Below, in pieces: positions 2,358 through 47,025 of a stretch of DNA of 64,000 bases. The notes under the pieces are model-generated. The model made no database searches and was not told the DNA's origin. It saw only the letters and a list, made by a program, of their open reading frames with translations. The position numbers were made by a program, and so were the translations under genes. Source of the stretch: Octopus vulgaris (lineage: Eukaryota); NCBI GenBank assembly GCA_951406725.2, contig OX597816.1, forward strand, positions 20,088,001 to 20,152,000, in the 5' to 3' direction. Positions within the stretch are counted from its first letter, which is position 1. Each line of letters starts with the position of its first letter.

Positions 2358-3250
2358 ATTCTTTATTACCCACAAGGGGCCAACGAAGAGGGGGACATTA
2401 CAAGACATGGGGACATGGAACATCACAATTACATATATATGAGCAAAATGGAATATGAAAATGATATATGAGAGTGATACCGACGGCCCCATCCGCCAGC
2501 ATCACTTATCTGTCCTTCTTCACCCATTTCCAATTAGTATTCCTGTTTTCCATTCTATCACAACATTCGTTTTTCTTTTAGCCCTCTCTATCCATTCATC
2601 TTTCATTTCCACTGACTTCCAACACACACCCTCTTCCTCTAACCTTGTCGCCAATATACCCGTATCATCACTATCCACAGCCGTGTAGCTCCAATCTTCG
2701 TGTTCGTACCACTTGGTTAACACCAGTTTTTTAACGTTTTGTATGTCTTTCCCATGTATAACACATAAAAAATGGGTCTTGGGACTTTCTTTGCTCTGTG
2801 TGTCTGTTTTTATTTTTCTTGTAGGCGGGGAGTGGGTGGAATCACTGTTTGCAGGGGNNNNNNNNNNNNNNNNNNNNNNNNNNNNNNNNNNNNNNNNNNN
2901 NNNNNNNNNNNNNNNNNNNNNNNNNNNNNNNNNNNNNNNNNNNNNNNNNNNNNNNNNCCATCTTTTTCACCGCCAACTCCTCCTCAGATGTCGATACTTC
3001 CGTCGAAATTTCAGAGTAAATTCTCCCTTCCATCTCCTCCGCTTGATGGAGGCGGCTCATAGTCGCCTCAGACCGAAAAACGGCCTCCCGAACCGAAAAA
3101 GTGTAACGCGCAGAACCAGTGAGACGCGAAACCGCATCAACGCCGTTCAGAATTTCCACAACAACAACAACACTTTTTGTTCTTTTTTTTTTTACCGAAT
3201 TTCAGAGAGCAAAAAACACAGAAAAAAACACGACCTTTTTTCTCTACATA
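2358..3250 (-). mobile_element. Copy 3 of tandem ORF1-only element, interrupted by assembly gap
   Basis: 2358-2735 matches 668-1041; 2958-3215 matches the 5' part of the unit; N-run in between. Confidence 0.75.
2858..2957. other. Assembly gap (100 N)
   Basis: Run of N; true array length unknown. Confidence 1.
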
Positions 3251-3569
3251 CTTTATAGACAATAGTCTTTTCTTTAATTTAATTTTTTATTATCCATCTG
3301 GACTATTCATTTCTGCACGCTAATTTTATTTTTAATTTATTCCCATTCATGTGAAACCACTTATTCAAGTTCAAATCATTGATGCAATGTTATACCAATT
3401 GCTATTTTTACTTTTGTTATGTTACGATTATATTATACTTTAGTTTGATTTTAATTATTACTTACTACATATAATTCAATTGTTATTATTATTTTTATTG
3501 TTAAAGTGAAAGTATCTGACATAAAATAGAGAAACGTTTTTGTTTCACTTTTAACACTTAATACTGAAA

Positions 3570-5037: not shown

Positions 5038-6851
5038 AATATGTTCACTTCTTTGTTTGAGTTTTGTATTAATATCTAACTGTGTATTACACAGTGTAAA
5101 AATATATTTACTTTTTTGTGTTTCCTTTATAGTAAAAGAGGTGTCCATATTCTTCAACTGTGACAGAGCTGTAATACATAACCTTTCGAAGTATATTCTA
5201 CAGTCGTAAGTAGATGAAGTTGTCGTGGACATTTCTGAAATTTTAACCGAAGTGGTCTTACATGACTATTTTATCACGGGTACGTTTGATATACACAGTC
5301 ATGAGATCTTTTTTTGTTGGAAAACAACAGACATTATATATTTGTGTAAAGCATCAGCGAATGTTGATTTGGAGCCACTCAATGCACTTGAAATTATCCC
5401 CAGAGAAAATGTTTGCTCCTGCAAAAGAAATTACGTTATAGTCATTAGAGCAGAGTTCACAAGTTGCGCGTGAAAATATACGAATATATAGACGACGGAG
5501 CTTTGGTTGTCTTGGCAATGAACAGTCAAACGTCAGTACTCTATAAAGAATTACTTACACATTTGGAGATATTCTTACAATTCACTGACTGTCTCTACTA
5601 TACTAGATTAGATTTTATCTAACTGTATTTGATCATTTTATTAACTTTTATTAGTTTGTTCTTTCGAAATTTTACTGAATTCATCCAATATATTCGTTAA
5701 ACTGATAATACTCAAAACTAAAATAGTAACTTAGTATTTTATTTTACGTTTACATTTCTTAATTCTTTAACATTTTAGTTCTGCTTATCTTGATTTATTA
5801 TCATTTTATTTAGCTTAACCAATTAAAATGTCAGTTGTGCTAAAATAATAGTTAGATTTTATGGGTTTTATGCAGGAATTATACGAAATAATTGTCGAAT
5901 ACTAAATGCTAAATATGCTTTTATATGGTTTCAGTAAAAACAGACAAGAGGAAATTAAAAGAGAATGAAATAAAAATATAAAAATATTGAATGATGAAAT
6001 TAGTTCTAGACAGATGTGTTGATAAAAGTTATAACAATGTTTGGCAACGTTTCATGATATCATAAAAACATTAAAAATGGCAACTTTCTGGTAGTTTAAT
6101 AAGACATGCGGTTCCGTTTTCATAGGTGAGCCAGCTGTGTCAATCTCCTCCCTTAACTGTGTCACCTTATTCAAGTAACAAGGACTTAAATTTATACGGT
6201 ATATCTTGCAGGATGTTTACTTTTTTCATACTTCAAGTGATAAAATATTTTGTTAAATAAATTTCGTAGGAGGTGAGCAGGAGAATAAAGAAATTATTTG
6301 CAGACTATTATAGACTCTGATTTGGAGGACAAGTATGCTTAATCTTGGAATCTGCTGTCAATAAGTTTAACAAATCGTGAGTGAAAAGTAATCTGCTTTT
6401 GATCCGGATAACTGCAATAGAATCAACGCATTTAAAAGCACATAATGTATATATGACATCATTAATCATTTAGACACGCTAGCTTCTCCGCGAAAATATA
6501 TACTCCAAGCCAAAGTATGTATAAATTGAGATTCAGTGTACAATTTTGAATATCAGTAAAACTAGGTACCAGTTAAACTCTTCTACCATTTCAAGCCTAT
6601 TTTGAAGAATTTACGAGCTAAATATACGTTCTATTTCTATCATTGTGTTTCCATATTATATTTTAAGTATTACACGTGCAGAGCAACGGCAAATGGCAAA
6701 TTATTTATATGTTCTCAAAACCGTGTGGAGTTCTTGATATAATTAACACAGCTAACTTCTTGCTGAGTTGGCGGTCCACTTACTATTTCACAAAAAACAA
6801 CTTCCTAGTACGAATGTAAGCTGTAATCAAAGATTCATCGTAAGCAATATA

Positions 6852-7260
6852 CTCTCTTTACTCTCTTTTACTTGTTTAAGTCACTTGACTGCGGCCATGC
6901 TGGAGCACCGCCTTTAATCGAGCAACTCGACCCCGGGACTTATTCTTTTGTAAGTACAGTACTTATTCTATCGGTCTCTTTTGCCGAACCGCTAGGTAAC
7001 GGGGAAGCAAACACACCAGCATCGGTTGTCAAGCAATGCTAGGGGGACAAACACACTCACAAAAACACATACACGCATATACATATACATATATGCGACG
7101 GGCTTCTTTCAGTTTCCGTCTACCAAATCCACTCACAAGGCTTTGGTCGGCCCGAGGCTATAGTAGAAGGCACTTTCCTAAGGTGCCACGCAGTAGGACT
7201 GAACCCGGAACCATGTGGCTGGTAAACAAGCTACTTACCACACAGCGACTCCTGCGCCTA
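6852..7260 (-). mobile_element. SINE A (tRNA head, CORE-like box, internal TA/CA microsatellite, LINE-derived tail)
   Basis: Matches >12 other copies in the window; ends in (AAAAGAGT)n. Confidence 0.9.
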
Positions 7261-7662
7261 TAATATAGGCATGATAACAAAAATTATAAATTATAATTTG
7301 GGCTTCTGTTTTCAGTGATGTATGAAGATTAAAGAATAAAATAAGACGGTAGTTGAGACATTAAAACGTTGGTTAATTCATATCATATGTCATGTGCTTT
7401 CTATGATAGTGGGAACAGCATCAGAAATAAGTTTTCACTTTCAGCATTTTCTTCAATTCTGACTTTCTAGAACACAGGATAAGTTAAACAAGCACAATTA
7501 ATTGTGCTCTTATACATGCAATTCTTGAAATACAATGATTATACTAAATCATAGAATATGATATCAAACAGAAGCGCAATCCAACTGTAAGTGACAACAA
7601 TATATTATAACGAATATCGCCGATATTTGAACATTAAACGTCCAAATTTCTATTGAACATTA

Positions 7663-26690: not shown

Positions 26691-26991
26691 ATTTTTCACT
26701 TGTCCGTTTACAACCTGTGAGTGTGGGAGAAATAAGGTTGTTTTTAGTGCAATTTGTCATCTATCTCTAGCGTGTTGGACCGGTTATTCCGATCCCTTTA
26801 ATACAATTATGTGTATAATTATAAACTTAGTATATAAAATTTAACTACAAGGTATTTATTTCACGCTGGCAACTTGATAGAAACATTAAAGTGATCTTAT
26901 CCCCATTTCTATAAGGAATAAAAATATATACATACATATATATAAACATATTTATATATATATATATAAATATATATACATATATATATAC

Positions 26992-27061
<70 letters not shown>

Positions 27062-27064
<3 letters not shown>

Positions 27065-27609
27065 GATAAATATCAAAGTGAGTTATATACGGTAGCGGTA
27101 ACACATCGTGACGTATTTTTGCCATTTCAATATGGCTAACCCCAAAGGGTGGATGCTACTGTAGTTTTTAGCCCCAGGAGGACACACTCCTCCAGCTGGC
27201 CATAGACACACTTTCTGTGTCCTGTCAGTATTTGCAAAGGGAAGTCATCCTTCCCGTCTTCAACTTATGATACACACGGACTCGAGTTTCGAGGTATTGA
27301 CCTCTCGTCAGCGTGTGACAATCATAGTTGTCGGCGAGAATTAGATTCCTTCACAAATACTTATACTTTTTCCAGCGTCCACTGTCGCTGATATTGAAAA
27401 AGTGAAATCAAACAATGATAAATATCAAAGTGAGTTATATACAGTAGCGGTAACACATCGTGACGTATTTTTGCCATTTCAATATGGCTAACCCCTAAGG
27501 ACACAGAAAGTGTGTCTATGGCCAGCTGGAGGAGTGTGTCCTCCTGGGGCTAAAAACTACAGTAGCATCCACCCTTAGGGGTTAGCCATATTGAAATGGC
27601 AAAAATACG

Positions 27610-27613
<4 letters not shown>
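27062..27613 (-). mobile_element. Retrozyme-like element: 352-nt unit + partial direct repeat + 5' inverted segment, within (TA)n
   Basis: 27062-27146 repeats at 27414-27498; 27499-27613 is the reverse complement of ~27108-27222; contains a hammerhead. Confidence 0.85.
27273..27317 (-). ncRNA. Type I hammerhead ribozyme (canonical core)
   Basis: CACACG-CTGACGA-GAGG tcaata CCTC-GAAA-CTCGAGTC/CGTGTG: stems I and II pair fully, palindromic stem III, GUC site. Confidence 0.92.
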
Positions 27614-27659
<46 letters not shown>

Positions 27660-27660
27660 C

Positions 27661-27725
<65 letters not shown>

Positions 27726-27748
27726 CATATATATACATATATATATAT

Positions 27749-27783
<35 letters not shown>

Positions 27784-28230
27784 TGTATTTATGTGTGCGT
27801 TTCTGTGTTTCTGTGTGAGTGTGCGCGTGCGTGAGGGTGCATCTATATGTCGATATATGTCGGAACGTACGTTGCACACTGCTTTATAGCACTGACCGAA
27901 ACGTCAGGTTTTCATTTGATTTGCACTTGGATGACATGCTATCACAGGCAAATCAATAAATTTACATGTCTAATGATTAAAGAAGAAACGTTGCATTTTT
28001 CTTTTTTAGTTATATGACCTGTTTCCAATTTTGTTCAAATAAAATAGACTTTAAATTCGATGGGAAATATAAATATTGTACAACTTAAATTTATTGTGTA
28101 TAAATAGGTTAGCAGATAATTTGATATTTACTGTTTCTTTTAATTATTTTATTTTGAATATTTTTTTCTTTTAGTAATTTTTTCCCTTAATCTTGATTTT
28201 TATTCGTTCAAGAATTTTCAAATACATGAA

Positions 28231-37555: not shown

Positions 37556-39207
37556 GTTTCTTTATTAGCCACACAGGGCTGCACACAGATAGAACAAATT
37601 ACAAGGTAGAGCTTTTCTTTTGGGGGTAAAAAAAAAGAGAGTGGTAGTTTTTGATCAAAAGGGATCGTAAAAGGAAAGAAAAAGGACAAAAAAAGGGGGG
37701 GGAGAAAAAAATGAATAATAGGGATCGTTATCACAGAAATGTCAATATGAAGTGTAAAGGGGAGGACAGGTGAGGTTTACCCGTGGAAAGAAAAGCCTAC
37801 GGAAAAGACCACGGTAACCTCGGTCATTGAAGTCACATGTTATATTTCTTTTTTTTTTTTTTTTGCAAATAAGCAACTCTCTGTATTAATTTTTATGGTT
37901 CATAGAATCATAGTCAAGGTGGCTTCGTCATTCATACGTGCCATCCTTGCTACATTCACCCATCTTTTTTAAAACATTCACTAGACAAAACTTGCCTCTC
38001 TACTATCACTTTCCTCTTCAAGTGATACTTGAAGAAGTTGATGAGAGATTGACCAGAGAGGAAAGTGTTTGTCTCTAATCCTTTCAGGCGCGTCCACCAG
38101 ATACATTCTTTCGCCATAGCCACAAGTATGATAAAAATAGCTCTTCCTTCCCGTTTGAAGGAAGGAGGCGTGACGATATTAACGATAGACTCGGCTGATA
38201 AACCGACACGTCCCACACATGACAGCAGTCGTTCGACATAAGCCCACAGGTCGGAAATTGCTGGACACTGCACGATTGCGTGCAGAGCGGTTTCGTCGCT
38301 CTGCCCGCATCTCGGGCAGGTCGGCCCCGTGTTTCTCGAGCCATGCCTATAGAGCTTATCCCGAACGGGTAGCGCTTCTCGGTAGCACCGCCAGGCCAGG
38401 GATCTCTGGAAGTTGTCCATAGGTCCCGGGCCGAAAGTCGTTTGAAACAGGCGGGTCAGGTATTCCTCGTCGACGCCCAGGTTTGCCCCGAGCTCGTCGT
38501 CGTACCTCCCCTCCACTAATCCCCTATAGAATGCTTTGGTTGTGTTGAAGTCACTCAAGGTCGACTCGGGACGGCAGAGTTGCTTGAGAGCAACGCGACA
38601 CTCGCGGTGCCATTCGCCCTTCCTCGGCCTCTTTTTGATCCACGACTGCAGTTCGGTCATGGAGACAAGTTGCGGGAATGCGTGCCTCACAAACGGCGAC
38701 CACACCTGTTCACCGTCGTCTACATAGAGCCAGAGATGTCGCAGTCTCAGTGCGTGTCTGCGCATCATCAACCACGGCATGCCCAGCCCTCCTTTTAACG
38801 GGTGTTGACAGCAAATGGATCGCCTGACCATCGGGACGGATCCTTTCCACAAGAAGCGGAAGAGAATGCGTTCTAGTTTGGTGATGGTAGGGTCGGGACA
38901 AGGTACGACGGTCAAGCGGTAGTAGATGATGGACGCGATGTACGCGTTCACCACCTCCGCCCGACCTTTTAGGGACAGTTTCCTCTCGGCCCATTGCTGG
39001 GCGAGAGTGACCACCCTACTCGTTATCTCGTTCCAGTTCTTCTCCATTTGGAGGTCCGGACCGAACCAGACCCCGAGCAACTCAACCGGGCCGTCTGTCC
39101 CAGCGTCCCACGACGGAGGTACTGGTGGACGGCATGGGCTTGCTTCTCCAGGTGCCGAGCCGCAAACCCACTGACTTTTCCCGGTTGATTTTTGCTCCTG
39201 TCACCGC
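37556..39207 (-). mobile_element. 5'-truncated Tx1-clade LINE
   Basis: End of ORF2 plus ~330-400 bp 3' region ending AGCCCTGTGTGGCTAATAAAGAAA; (TAGA)n on both sides. Confidence 0.9.
37956..39080 (-). pseudogene. Tx1/L1 ORF2 C-terminal part (RT thumb + zinc-binding domain)
   Basis: LGVWFG…W.ERKLSLKGRAEVVN…FLWKG…KGGLGMP…CPRCGQSDETALHAIVQC. Confidence 0.9.
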
Positions 39208-39316: not shown

Positions 39317-40130
39317 CATATAATTCAGCTGCGTTTGCTATTGAATAATATTCTTAAGGCCGCAATTTTTCTCACAGGCACCATCTTTCAGACCTTGTCG
39401 ATAATTCTATTCTTAACCAAATTGGAAATTAAAATTTTTGAAGAGAACTGGTCCCTAGCTACATTTTGGCAAAAGAAATTGATATTCGATCTGGCAGAAA
39501 AAAATTTCCATCAAAATTTGTAACAACGTTATAGGAGAGTAAGTAACACCACCAATCAAGTTTAGATCTAAATAACTTTTTTTATTTTAAAAGCAATATA
39601 TACTTATCTTAGGTGCAATGATAGAAGAAAGCATGAAGAGGTTTACAGTGTTGTTCCCGTGCAACAAAAATGTGTATCAATAAAAATGTGAGGTAAAATA
39701 TCATGAGAAAAATATAAGGCAACACTTGGATTTAAGTAGAATCAACATTTTATTTTTATTTTAAGAATAAAATATATTTTAATTAAGCTTAAATGATAGA
39801 GCACAATTCGAGGAATTTCATGGTATCAATCTCATGTAACGAAGTCAATGAAGTTTTAAAAAGAAAAAGTTGATAGTTTCTTTCTCAAATTTGCGGATGA
39901 GTATATAGCTCTATACATTTTTATGAATATAATTCTCTAAGGGGAATTTTACTATATGTCACCTGCGCCATTGAGACAAGAAAGAAATTATTAACGACAC
40001 TGCTAATTAACACATTTGACACATGATTAATTAGTCTGTACTTTACCAGATGCAATAAGTTGTCCTGAACGTTTCCAGGTTTATAATGTGAAGAATATTA
40101 TTTCTCTTGCTCGCATATTTCCATCTAATT

Positions 40131-40163
<33 letters not shown>

Positions 40164-40862
40164 GCAATAATAATTCTCTAAACGAGATATAGACAGTAAC
40201 TGCTCCATAACAAAAGGGACATTAGCCATTTGAATGTGGCTAGGGACAGGGCAGGGCGGTGGGGGTGTTACTGTTGCATTTAGCCCCAGGCGAACATCAA
40301 CGTCACCAGAAAGGCTTGACACCATCACGGCGTCCTCTATCCCGCTTCTTCGGTGGATGATCTCCCTTTGCAGGATAGAGGACGCCGTGATGGTGTCAAG
40401 CCTTTCTGGTGACGTTGATGTTTGCCTGGGGCTAAATGCAACAGTAACACCCCCACCGCCCTGCCCTGTCCCTAGCCACATTCAAATGGCTAATGTCCCT
40501 TTTGTTATGGAGCAGTTACTGTCTATATCTCGTTTAGAGAATTATTATTGCTGTCGAACAGATTTTCGAAATCAGTAAATGTATTTACGTGAAAATCTTT
40601 ATATAAATATCCTGCACAGAGAGTCGTTCGTCGAAGGGCGGTGCCTACCATACGTTGACGAGAGGCAAACACCTCGAAACCTGGGTCCGTATGTGGCTTC
40701 GCTTCTTCGGTGGATGATCTCCCTTTGCAGGATAGAGGACGCCGTGATGGTGTCAAGCCTTTCTGGTGACGTTGATGTTCGCCTGGGGCTAAATGCAACA
40801 GTAACACCCCCACCGCCCTGCCCTGTCCCTAGCCACATTCAAATGGCTAATGTCCCTTTTGT

Positions 40863-40864
<2 letters not shown>
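40164..40864 (+). mobile_element. Retrozyme-like element: 357-nt unit + partial direct repeat + 5' inverted segment, within (TA)n
   Basis: 40343-40507 repeats at 40700-40864; 40164-40342 is the reverse complement of ~40372-40550; contains a hammerhead. Confidence 0.85.
40649..40693 (+). ncRNA. Type I hammerhead ribozyme (C3U core variant)
   Basis: CATACG-TTGACGA-GAGG caaaca CCTC-GAAA-CCTGGGTC/CGTATG; predicted cleavage after 40687. Confidence 0.88.
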
Positions 40865-40927
<63 letters not shown>

Positions 40928-41744
40928 GACGCGCTTCTGTCAGTTTCCGTCAAACAAATCAACTCACAATTCTTTGGTCGGATCAACACTATAGTAGAAT
41001 ACACTTACCCAAGGTGCTACGCCATGGGACTGAACCTGGAATATTATAGTTTGGAAGCAAATTTCTTTCCACACAAACACGCCTTCTTATACACTTTATT
41101 ATTGTGCTTTTTTAGTTATATTTATATTAATTTCATATTCATATATTTTTATTATATTGTTACTTTTGCCTTCCCCTACTTCCTGACATTATCTCATGCC
41201 CACCCCTTCTGTATTCCTCTTTTCACTCCACCTCGTTTTTCTTTCTTTATTTATTTACTGATTTATTTATTCGTTTATTTCCTCCTCTTTTTCTTCTTTA
41301 TCTTTACATTTATTCATGTTAGTATTGTCTTCAGACTTCAGCGGAACGAGTTGGGCCTCTATATTATGGTAACGCGTGCTGAAAGGTTGAGACTATTATA
41401 CCAGTCCAGAAACCAGTCCACGCGTGTCCATATACTTAAATGTACGCTGAGAGATTAACTTAGCCCGTTTGCATTCAGACGGTTAATTTCTGTAATTATT
41501 ATAAGTGTATTTTGGTGATTTAAACAAGAGTTTTGACTGTTATTTCCGGCAGACTGATATACTTAGTATATCCTTTGATTAATTGTAATCCCTCAGTTAT
41601 TTAGATATTTTATGCTTTTATGGGCCTGCAATCGCCTCTATTATTGATTCTGTTATTATCATTTTTAAATTGTTATACTAGATAATAATAGAGTCAATAA
41701 TATCTCTGCAAATTATCTTCTCGTGAATTATTTGCTCCGTATTG

Positions 41745-43324: not shown

Positions 43325-44302
43325 GTAAAAAATGAAGTTCGAAAATGCTGCTGTATTATACAATTTTTAATTTTTATATATATACATTATAACATGTTTC
43401 AGTTCCTGAAATGAACTTTATCAAAAAAAGTTATATATAAAAAAAGACAGCTCATGCCGTCAAACACAAGAAATTCACTTATAATACACAACGGAGTCAG
43501 ACATCTTAGAGTTCATGTATAGTTGATATACAGTTTGAAGTATATGTTCAAAGTGTTCGATGCAGTGGCCCACGGTGGCGATACGTATTCAATACAAAAA
43601 ACAGATCAAAGTGGTGGAAAGCGGTTAATACAGAAGATTGATGTTTCCGAAAGAGCGAGGAATTCATTTTTACCTTATATGTATATATATATATATATAC
43701 ATATACCGAAAGACAGAGAATGAGGCAGCAGTTTCCGTCCCAGCGATATGGTTCCGCGTTCATTTTCGGCAAGTGTTTTTTTCTACATCCCCCGGACCGG
43801 CGAAAGTATTCATATATCGCTGTGAGTGTGTATCTTTGCGTTTGTTATCGTACCCCATCAATACTCGACGACCAGTGCCGGGTTGTTTACGTTCCCGTTA
43901 CCTACCGTTCCAACAAAAAGGATCTGATACAATAAGCACTAGACTTTAAAATATATACTAGGGTCGATTTGTTCGCCTAAATCCATTATAACTCTATCCC
44001 CAGCTTTGGTCCAAAACAATGAGATAATTAAGTAGTGAATATGACAAAAGATACATATAAGACTTGCGTTCGGGTCACAAACGGAGATGAACCCATCTCA
44101 TTATCAACGAGGGAAAGTACCCAGACCGAGCGTAGAGACTACTGATTTGAGGAATCGTGTCAAACTTATCAGCTGCCTCCCGTTGATGCAATGACGCTGG
44201 GAGTTGTTGGTAGGTATCTTCGTCATAGTAAAGCTAAATGCAAGTGGCAGTTTAGTGTTAACAAAATGGGGATTATTCTGAAGGAATTTCTTTCTTTCTT
44301 TT

Positions 44303-46160: not shown

Positions 46161-47025
46161 TAGCGACGTGTTGGCAGAATCGTTAGCACGCTGGGCGAAA
46201 TGCTTAGTGGTATTTCCTCTGCCGTTACGTTCTGAGTTCGAATTCCACCGAGGTCGACTTTGCCTTTCATCCTTTCAGAGTCGATTAAATAAGCACCAGT
46301 TACGCACTGCGGTCCATGTAATCGACTTAATACCTATGGCTGTCCTTGTTTGTCCTCTCTGTCTTTAGTCCATTGTGGGTAGTAAAGAAATAGGTATTTC
46401 GTTTGCCGCTACGTTGTGAGTTAAAATTTCGCCGAGGTCAACTTTGACTTTCATCCTTTCGGGGTCGATTAAATTAGTACTAGTTACGCACTGGGGTCGA
46501 TATAATCTACTTAATCCGTTTGTATGTCCTTGTTTGTCCTCTCTGTCTTTAGCACCTTGTGGGTAGTAAAGAAATAGGCGTTTCGTCTGCCGCTACGTTC
46601 TACGTTCAAATTTCGCCGAGGTCGACTTTGCCTTTCATTCTTTCGGGGTCGATTAAATTAGTACCAATTACGCACTGGGGTCGATATAATCGACTTAATC
46701 CTTTTGTCTGTCCTTGTTTGTCCTCTCTGTGTTTAGCCCCTTGTGGGTAGTAAAGAAACAGCTATTTCGACTTTCATTACGTTTAGAGAGGCGGCGAGCT
46801 GGCAGAAACGTTTGCGCGCCGGGCGAAATGCTTAGCGGTATTTCGTCTGCTGCTACGTTCTGGGTTCAAATTTCGCCGGGATCGACTTTGCCTGTCATCC
46901 TTTCGGAGTCGATAAATAAAGTACTAGTTGCGCACTAGGGTCGATGTAATCGATTTAATCTTTTTGTCTGTCCTTGTTTGCCCCCTCTATGTTTAGCTCC
47001 TAGTGGGTAGTAAAGAAATAGGTAT
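46161..47025 (+). mobile_element. Tandem array of four SINE B units
   Basis: Tail TTGTGGGTAGTAAAGAAA or a close variant recurs at ~46375, ~46557, ~46741, ~47001. Confidence 0.9.

Follow-up and report, generated by a model that had tools for sequence, protein, structure and literature searches.

Two short insertions lying at about 27 and 40 kb in a 64,000-nucleotide stretch of the Octopus vulgaris genome (contig OX597816.1, forward-strand positions 20,088,001 to 20,152,000; hereafter, the window) are young copies of a non-coding hammerhead ribozyme repeat, namely, a non-LTR retrozyme, an element of a known kind, bearing a Penelope-type footprint. It is reasonably likely that this repeat was written into the genome by a Penelope-like reverse transcriptase (RT)/endonuclease that primed from both strands of a cut target on one unit-length RNA, probably a circle.

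Simple repeats, (TA)n among them, abound in the window, and both insertions lie between TA runs. When both strands were scanned for type I hammerheads, only two motifs were detected, one in each insertion; a Rfam search of the window listed no hammerhead, and the motifs rest on the pattern scan and on conservation. Mapping onto the repeat unit, with positions counted from the predicted ribozyme cut, revealed the insertions to belong to distinct, homologous families, termed A (40 kb; 357-nt unit) and B (27 kb; 352/353-nt unit). The units of the two families are 59% identical (220 of 370 columns; score 178, vs. -7 ± 15 for shuffles). With P and D denoting the proximal and distal end sites considered below, the mapped features are as follows.

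40130..40163, no strand: (TA)n target to the left of the family A insertion (simple-repeat annotation of the sequence)
40163..40342, minus strand: family A D-arm, inverted, running from unit position +222 back to +43, outer end at the fixed distal site (unit mapping)
40163..40206, minus strand: 44-nt 'tail', +179 to +222, lying between the two fixed end sites and present at one end only
40343..40864, plus strand: family A P-arm, direct, 1.46 units (522-523 nt; period 357, one mismatch in 165), extending from +13 across the cut as far as +177/178, where its outer end coincides with the fixed proximal site
40600..40609, plus strand: putative TATA-like box, ~50 nt upstream of the hammerhead motif (read from sequence)
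40649..40693, plus strand: type I hammerhead motif with U at core position 3 and a short self-complementary helix III, predicted cut after C40687
40863..40924, no strand: (TA)n target to the right of the family A insertion
26924..27062, no strand: (TA)n-type target to the left of the family B insertion
27062..27500, minus strand: family B D-arm, the long arm, 1.25 units (439 nt; period 352), running from +131/134 through the cut to +217
27273..27317, minus strand: type I hammerhead motif with a canonical core and palindromic helix III, predicted cut after 27279
27498..27616, plus strand: family B P-arm, inverted relative to the long arm, +56 to +171/174
27614..27792, no strand: (TA)n-type target to the right of the family B insertion

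The long arm is thus the P-arm in the 40-kb copy, where it is accompanied by a short D-arm, and the reverse holds for the 27-kb copy. A first-pass annotation of the window, made from the sequence, had placed the ends of the long arms ~12 and ~177 nt (40 kb) and ~133 and ~217 nt (27 kb) past the cut, values reproduced here. Unit mapping likewise confirmed that neither long arm starts or stops at the ribozyme cut, and the two-strand scan that each exceeds one unit while containing a single hammerhead motif. Because both window copies carry one ribozyme per arm, neither would free a monomer by itself.

Metazoan non-LTR retrozymes are described as tandem, non-coding units of 150-450 bp, each with one canonical type I hammerhead (Cervera and de la Peña, 2020; PMC7229834). 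The A and B units resemble these in being short, tandem and non-coding and in each containing one type I hammerhead, with a GC content below 50% (0.47 and 0.43). Frames across the units were only TA-driven or chance ones, no match to an RT or a Penelope-like element (PLE) was found in the window, and no LTR/PBS/PPT layout was apparent on the basis of GC content, frames and the lack of such matches. As such, the window does not encode the RT and GIY-YIG endonuclease of an autonomous Penelope-like element. Nor do the insertions have the single 3' end at the RNA terminus and the poly(A) or simple-repeat tail of a SINE or LINE, since they present two internal ends; in both A and B arms, the unit continues past both end sites in upstream laps.

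Pairing in hammerhead helices I, II and III is maintained across subfamilies through two-sided changes, with 90.5% of cells being paired, as compared to 13-39% in slid controls (eight sequences, from which the structure was itself derived). A U at core position 3, seen in all family A copies listed, may lower hammerhead activity. Both units are predicted to fold as circles better than do shuffled sequences (z = -3.2 and -5.0; 40 shuffles), with a long predicted helix holding the two ends of the monomer together. Helix III is short and presents a self-complementary loop in both families, an arrangement reported to be active when dimeric, in tandem RNA, and silent in the monomer (PMC4209133). 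A TATA-like box precedes the hammerhead at a similar distance in both units (+262-275 in family B) and, judging by its sequence, is possibly an internal promoter.

To place these observations in a genomic context, the 2.8-Gb genome was searched with each family, yielding approximately 2,000 first-look candidates per query; one exact family B 24-mer occurs 505 times. In total, 98 insertions were mapped onto the unit. The 44 distinct family A insertions were ranked by how closely they resemble the window copy, long and young copies being over-represented among them; the 54 family B insertions comprise 27 chosen by similarity and 27 drawn, in order of genome position, from among the first 100 of the 505 pattern matches. 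The first family A query started at +178 and hence favours arms of at least a full unit, and the family B pattern is blind to arms ending before +165; these biases do not explain exact ends at two sites. Repeat loci of one insertion, L124 (a segmental duplicate of L117) and pieces of less than 90% identity or shorter than 20 nt were dropped before counting, and loci L207-L209 and L231-L294 served only in length measurements or for older families and were left out of the end counts. The L231-like subfamily was too diverged for end mapping. Two family A copies counted as single-armed carry D stubs of 18 and 9 nt.

The outer ends of the arms were found to fall at two fixed sites. Across the 98 insertions, 148 of 157 outer ends lie at P or D (74/77 in family A, 74/80 in family B), as compared to the 3-4% expected were ends uniformly distributed. 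Each site is a window of 6-8 nt, at +175-180 (A) or +170-176 (B) for P and at +218-223 (A) or +215-222 (B) for D; both are downstream of the cut, about 45 nt apart, and align between the two families. Moreover, 51 of the 59 two-armed insertions pair one P end with one D end and the other eight have one odd end, with neither PP nor DD combinations being seen. The 39 single-armed insertions end at P (32), at D (6) or elsewhere (1). The inner (5') ends are scattered, and it is here, where synthesis stopped, that the variation between arms lies. The earlier proposal of variable start points is accordingly contradicted by fixed termini, a result named beforehand as speaking against it; the apparent mismatch between +177 and +217 had arisen from setting the proximal site of one family against the distal site of the other. 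In an older subfamily, 71-82% identical to B, the same two sites recur at 35 of 43 alignment ends.

Several further aspects of the copies were noted. Older subfamilies (L190, L194, L231, L232, L235-L294), 64-87% identical to A or B, point to a long succession of the lineage. Seven complex insertions (L020, L026, L098, L103, L104, L153 and L158) contain extra internal jumps between unit positions, falling near the head-to-head joint or inside an arm. Three family B arms (L067, L129 and L165) start exactly at +56, the foot of a conserved hairpin and a possible stall point.

Examination of the insertion sites showed (TA)5 flanks on both sides of 59 of the 98 insertions, on one side of 29 and on neither side of 10, such that 88 have at least one such flank. 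A 12-13-bp target duplication was seen in all five two-armed insertions outside (TA)n, while five single-armed insertions outside (TA)n showed no duplication or lay within other simple repeats. Thus, an inverted, 5'-truncated arm (59 of 98 insertions), target duplication, microsatellite targets and P/D-paired ends together make up the footprint of Penelope mobilization. Penelope-like insertions have been described with a 5'-truncated copy in inverted orientation and with a tail of 30-40 bp that is often confined to one end (PMC8557442, PMC3846280), with some clades preferring (TA)n (Craig, 2021, PMC8557442; PMC3846280). A purified anole Penelope-like protein cuts and extends both strands in vitro (Frangieh, 2024; PMC11167929), starting at two internal positions between which the tail lies (PMC11167929). 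Two internal start sites downstream of a hammerhead, a one-end tail, an inverted arm, target duplication and AT-rich or (TA)n targets are therefore common to Penelope insertions and to families A and B. By contrast, A and B lack an ORF and their tail measures 44-46 nt rather than 30-40, and their strict pairing of one P with one D end differs from the anole element in vitro, where the two strands were alike in start site (PMC11167929).

The genome that contains these retrozymes also contains autonomous Penelope-like elements encoding both RT and GIY-YIG domains. Of 6,136 Penelope-like candidates, 150 were scored and 148 gave GIY-YIG matches; RT and GIY-YIG occur in one frame in intact 781-aa frames, in which the RVT_1 match fell just under the cut-off. 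Autonomous elements end in (TA)n at two sites ~30-40 nt apart. Thus, 11 loci of the 781-aa family end at one site and two end 40 nt further on, while L194 has a direct arm reaching the near site and a 766-bp inverted arm ending ~30 nt further. In a third, very abundant family, 19 of 20 loci share one end site. Ends homologous to A or B were not found in 60 PLE loci (about four families, from among thousands of candidates), and no Penelope element with matching ends was found beside 61 older-subfamily loci.

Retrozyme-like matches beside Penelope elements in L190 and L194 were considered as pLTRs and rejected, as they lie outside the element ends; a similar match adjoins a Penelope element in L198. 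Two direct copies 3.7 kb apart on contig C24 enclose no RT frame, and a 15-kb gap between two arms on contig C1 contains LINE-type frames. Minimal or degenerate hammerhead-like motifs were seen in three Penelope-like families (L189, 5780-5960; L194, 5250-5490; L158, 2437-2700), ~75-145 nt ahead of their 3' ends. L189 also contains a 504-bp partial tandem that is 100% identical, and in the left flank of L095, a family B copy lies directly behind the hammerhead-like motif of the 781-aa Penelope family.

The nature of the template was addressed by considering how arms traverse the cut. Arms cross the ribozyme cut 190 times in the 98 insertions, and the 182 crossings that could be read with their flanks showed no indel. 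Of the 135 inner ends, two are located 5 nt or less from the cut, where 4.2 would be expected. Given such seamless crossings and the lack of any pile-up of ends, a cleaved linear RNA is not the plain template. The longest arm measures 2,425 nt, or 6.9 units. The suggestion of a circular or multimeric template made in the first-pass annotation holds to the extent that copying ran through the cut for more than one unit, and can be narrowed to a unit that was re-read, likely as a circle.

This narrowing comes from a comparison of haplotypes, restricted to substitutions at 25 family-polymorphic sites; indels were dropped, as placement artefacts dominated. Unit pairs were discordant in 12 of 747 comparisons within arms and in 16 of 939 between the two arms of an insertion (~2%), as compared to 10,039 of 24,770 (41%) between insertions, the latter value being inflated by subfamily age structure. 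In family A, 21 haplotypes were found among 36 fully typed insertions. Twelve alleles, each restricted to a single insertion, have become fixed throughout it, including two that fill the five laps of L154; five insertion-private alleles are present in some but not all units, and 163 single-unit mutations stay unhomogenized. Because a new mutation hits one unit, it can fill a whole array only if that unit is re-read. A haplotype shared over laps and arms thus indicates one source unit, not strictly one molecule, and the genomic sequence favours a template of unit length, most simply a ligated circle. Among alleles common to several units, 6 of 28 are A>G changes, as compared to 15 of 221 single-unit alleles (p = 0.02), with no significant strand bias (6 vs. 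2 T>C; p = 0.29). This hints weakly at changes made at the RNA level and carried into each lap. No RNA run was listed as containing the repeat. Among contigs from four public runs guessed to be RNA, one of 383 nt (352 + 31) would be expected from circle and tandem alike and was not used.

Of the alternatives, Penelope-type two-site priming on uncleaved linear multimers transcribed from head-to-tail arrays, with no need for a circle, fares best, although we consider it unlikely. With the anole element, ribozyme cleavage was dispensable, ribozyme mutants inserted normally, the main substrate in vitro was unprocessed RNA, and multi-copy RNA was favoured (PMC11167929). Here, 36 of the 98 insertions have an arm with at least two complete ribozymes and could supply multimers, from which a seamless cut site and scattered 5' ends would be expected as well. 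Against this stands the fixation of haplotypes and private alleles over all laps, given that a mutation arises in one unit of an array. Those alleles that occur in only one unit, in two or three insertions, are mostly C>T/G>A, fall at inconsistent laps and are found across subfamilies; they look like recurrent mutation rather than inherited order. Moreover, no array longer than 6.9 units was found among the best 40 candidates for a five-unit query, leaving the long arms without an evident longer source. In this respect, the multi-lap arms of A and B, each of one haplotype, differ from the preference for unprocessed multi-copy RNA described for the anole element (PMC11167929).

The single-unit bottleneck would also be obtained were the enzyme to copy a cleaved linear monomer and, at each lap, jump from the 5' end to the 3' end of that or a sister monomer, the two ends being held together by the long predicted helix. 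End-to-end template jumps, as in R2, usually leave extra or missing bases. With 182 crossings free of indels and arm ends not clustering at the cut, this route seems improbable, and re-reading of a ligated circle remains the preferred explanation.

The origin of the inverted arm was considered in the 48 simple two-armed insertions. In 19 of these, neither arm is contained in the other, making a fold-back copy of the first cDNA impossible there, while the remaining 29 also fit fold-back. In both window copies, the short arm lies entirely within the long arm, such that these two copies, taken alone, also fit fold-back. Inner joints share at least 3 nt in 9 of 23 cases, as compared to about one expected; microhomology was exactly readable at these 23 of the 48 joints, the script having stopped at subfamily differences. 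The first-pass annotation had proposed that a single cDNA, begun at a variable point and run around a circle or along a multimer, switched template to give the 5' inversion. Containment in the window copies, the microhomology at joints and the self-priming proposed for inverted Penelope junctions (PMC3846280) are in line with such a scheme, which is nonetheless very hard to reconcile with start sites that are fixed, with arms that each have their own, different outer end and with the 19 insertions noted above. Template switching is thus compatible with the window copies in isolation and is probably wrong as the general origin of the inversion. Instead, each arm is best read as the product of its own priming event, on one strand of a staggered cut.

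That the inverted arms and repeats are assembly artefacts, an outcome also named in advance as damaging, can be set aside almost entirely: inverted repeats between microsatellites are hard to assemble and no contig from two other public runs spanned the joint of the 40-kb locus itself, yet the arms are asymmetric, differ by point mutations and are flanked by 12-13-bp target duplications, contigs in both of those independent runs stop and give way to TA at 40552, as do contigs of one run at 40508, and further head-to-head joints are present in one of them.

The preferred model, i.e., two-strand priming on a re-read unit, can be outlined in five steps. A genomic arm with two hammerheads would be transcribed, cut to the 352/357-nt monomer and ligated. 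The enzyme would then cut the two strands of AT-rich DNA, in most cases (TA)n, in a staggered manner, as suggested by the 12-13-bp duplications. One DNA end would prime at P and the other at D, in agreement with the observed ends, at positions ~45 nt apart and internal to the RNA rather than at its cut end. Each cDNA would run upstream around the unit for 0.1 to ~7 laps, as the measured lengths indicate, before stopping at scattered points. Finally, the two cDNA ends would be joined head to head, often via 3-6 nt of microhomology; failure of the D strand would leave a single P-arm. More tentatively, a Penelope-type enzyme dimer may sit on one ribozyme-made ring and start reverse transcription twice simultaneously, once per target strand, with the insertion then being a print of a single circular RNA, A-to-I edits included. 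Were this so, a single mechanism, a dimer on one ring, would account together for the Penelope tail, the inverted arm and the partial tandem.

In LINE-1 twin priming, both target strands likewise prime and a head-to-head inversion is joined by microhomology, with the second primer annealing at variable sites and the two pieces not overlapping. The A and B sites, unlike those of twin priming, do not vary in position, and the arms overlap and are longer than one unit.

Separate publications already cover the circle model, initiation at two sites and a Penelope origin of retrozymes, and the element class is known. A circular RNA was proposed as the retrozyme template in PMC7229834 and PMC4209133, and Penelope-like elements were named as the likely retrozyme partner (PMC7229834). 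The retrozymes described in PMC7229834 form tandems ranging from dimers to large multimers, and their circles were shown by northern blot, whereas A and B occur as short insertions of two head-to-head arms, with both ends fixed, and are known here from genomic sequence; the words 'inverted' and 'octopus' are absent from the main text of that report. In Xenopus, retrozymes were considered as non-autonomous Penelope derivatives on the basis of co-distribution and pLTR homology (Li, Clavereau and Pollet, bioRxiv 10.64898/2026.07.22.740005). Co-occurrence with Penelope-like elements and a hijacking model are shared with that work; it rests on co-distribution and pLTRs, while for A and B the junction evidence is strong and pLTR homology was not found in the 60 PLE loci.

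A literature search returned no paper in which retrozyme junctions were mapped or in which pairing of one P with one D end, or laps of a single haplotype, were described for retrozymes, although supplements may bear on this novelty. The junctions described here thus provide junction-level support, not found in print, for Penelope mobilization of animal retrozymes. They bear on the question of how Penelope-like elements form tails, inverted arms and partial tandems, and on the debate as to whether the template is a ribozyme-made circle (PMC4209133, PMC7229834) or unprocessed RNA (PMC11167929). Short, young and numerous copies offer a readout of this process, with one-P-one-D pairing and one haplotype per insertion giving sharp predictions.

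Finally, other features of the window were noted. An RNase MRP RNA gene lies at 44049-44288 on the plus strand (65.8 bits, above the Rfam gathering score). Tandem duplicates, ~92% identical and carrying ORF1-like frames of a non-LTR element, occupy 1-1168, 1684-2857 and 2958-3253, the second being followed by a masked N run. A 414-aa frame at 37959-39200 on the minus strand presumably corresponds to the C-terminal part of the RT of a Tx1/L1-type element. Two abundant SINE-like families are represented, one at 6847-7267 and some 11 other places and the other at 46209-46769; a 184-bp triple tandem occurs in one of these families, and the sequence immediately after the 40-kb insertion, at 40908-41075, is a piece of the other.
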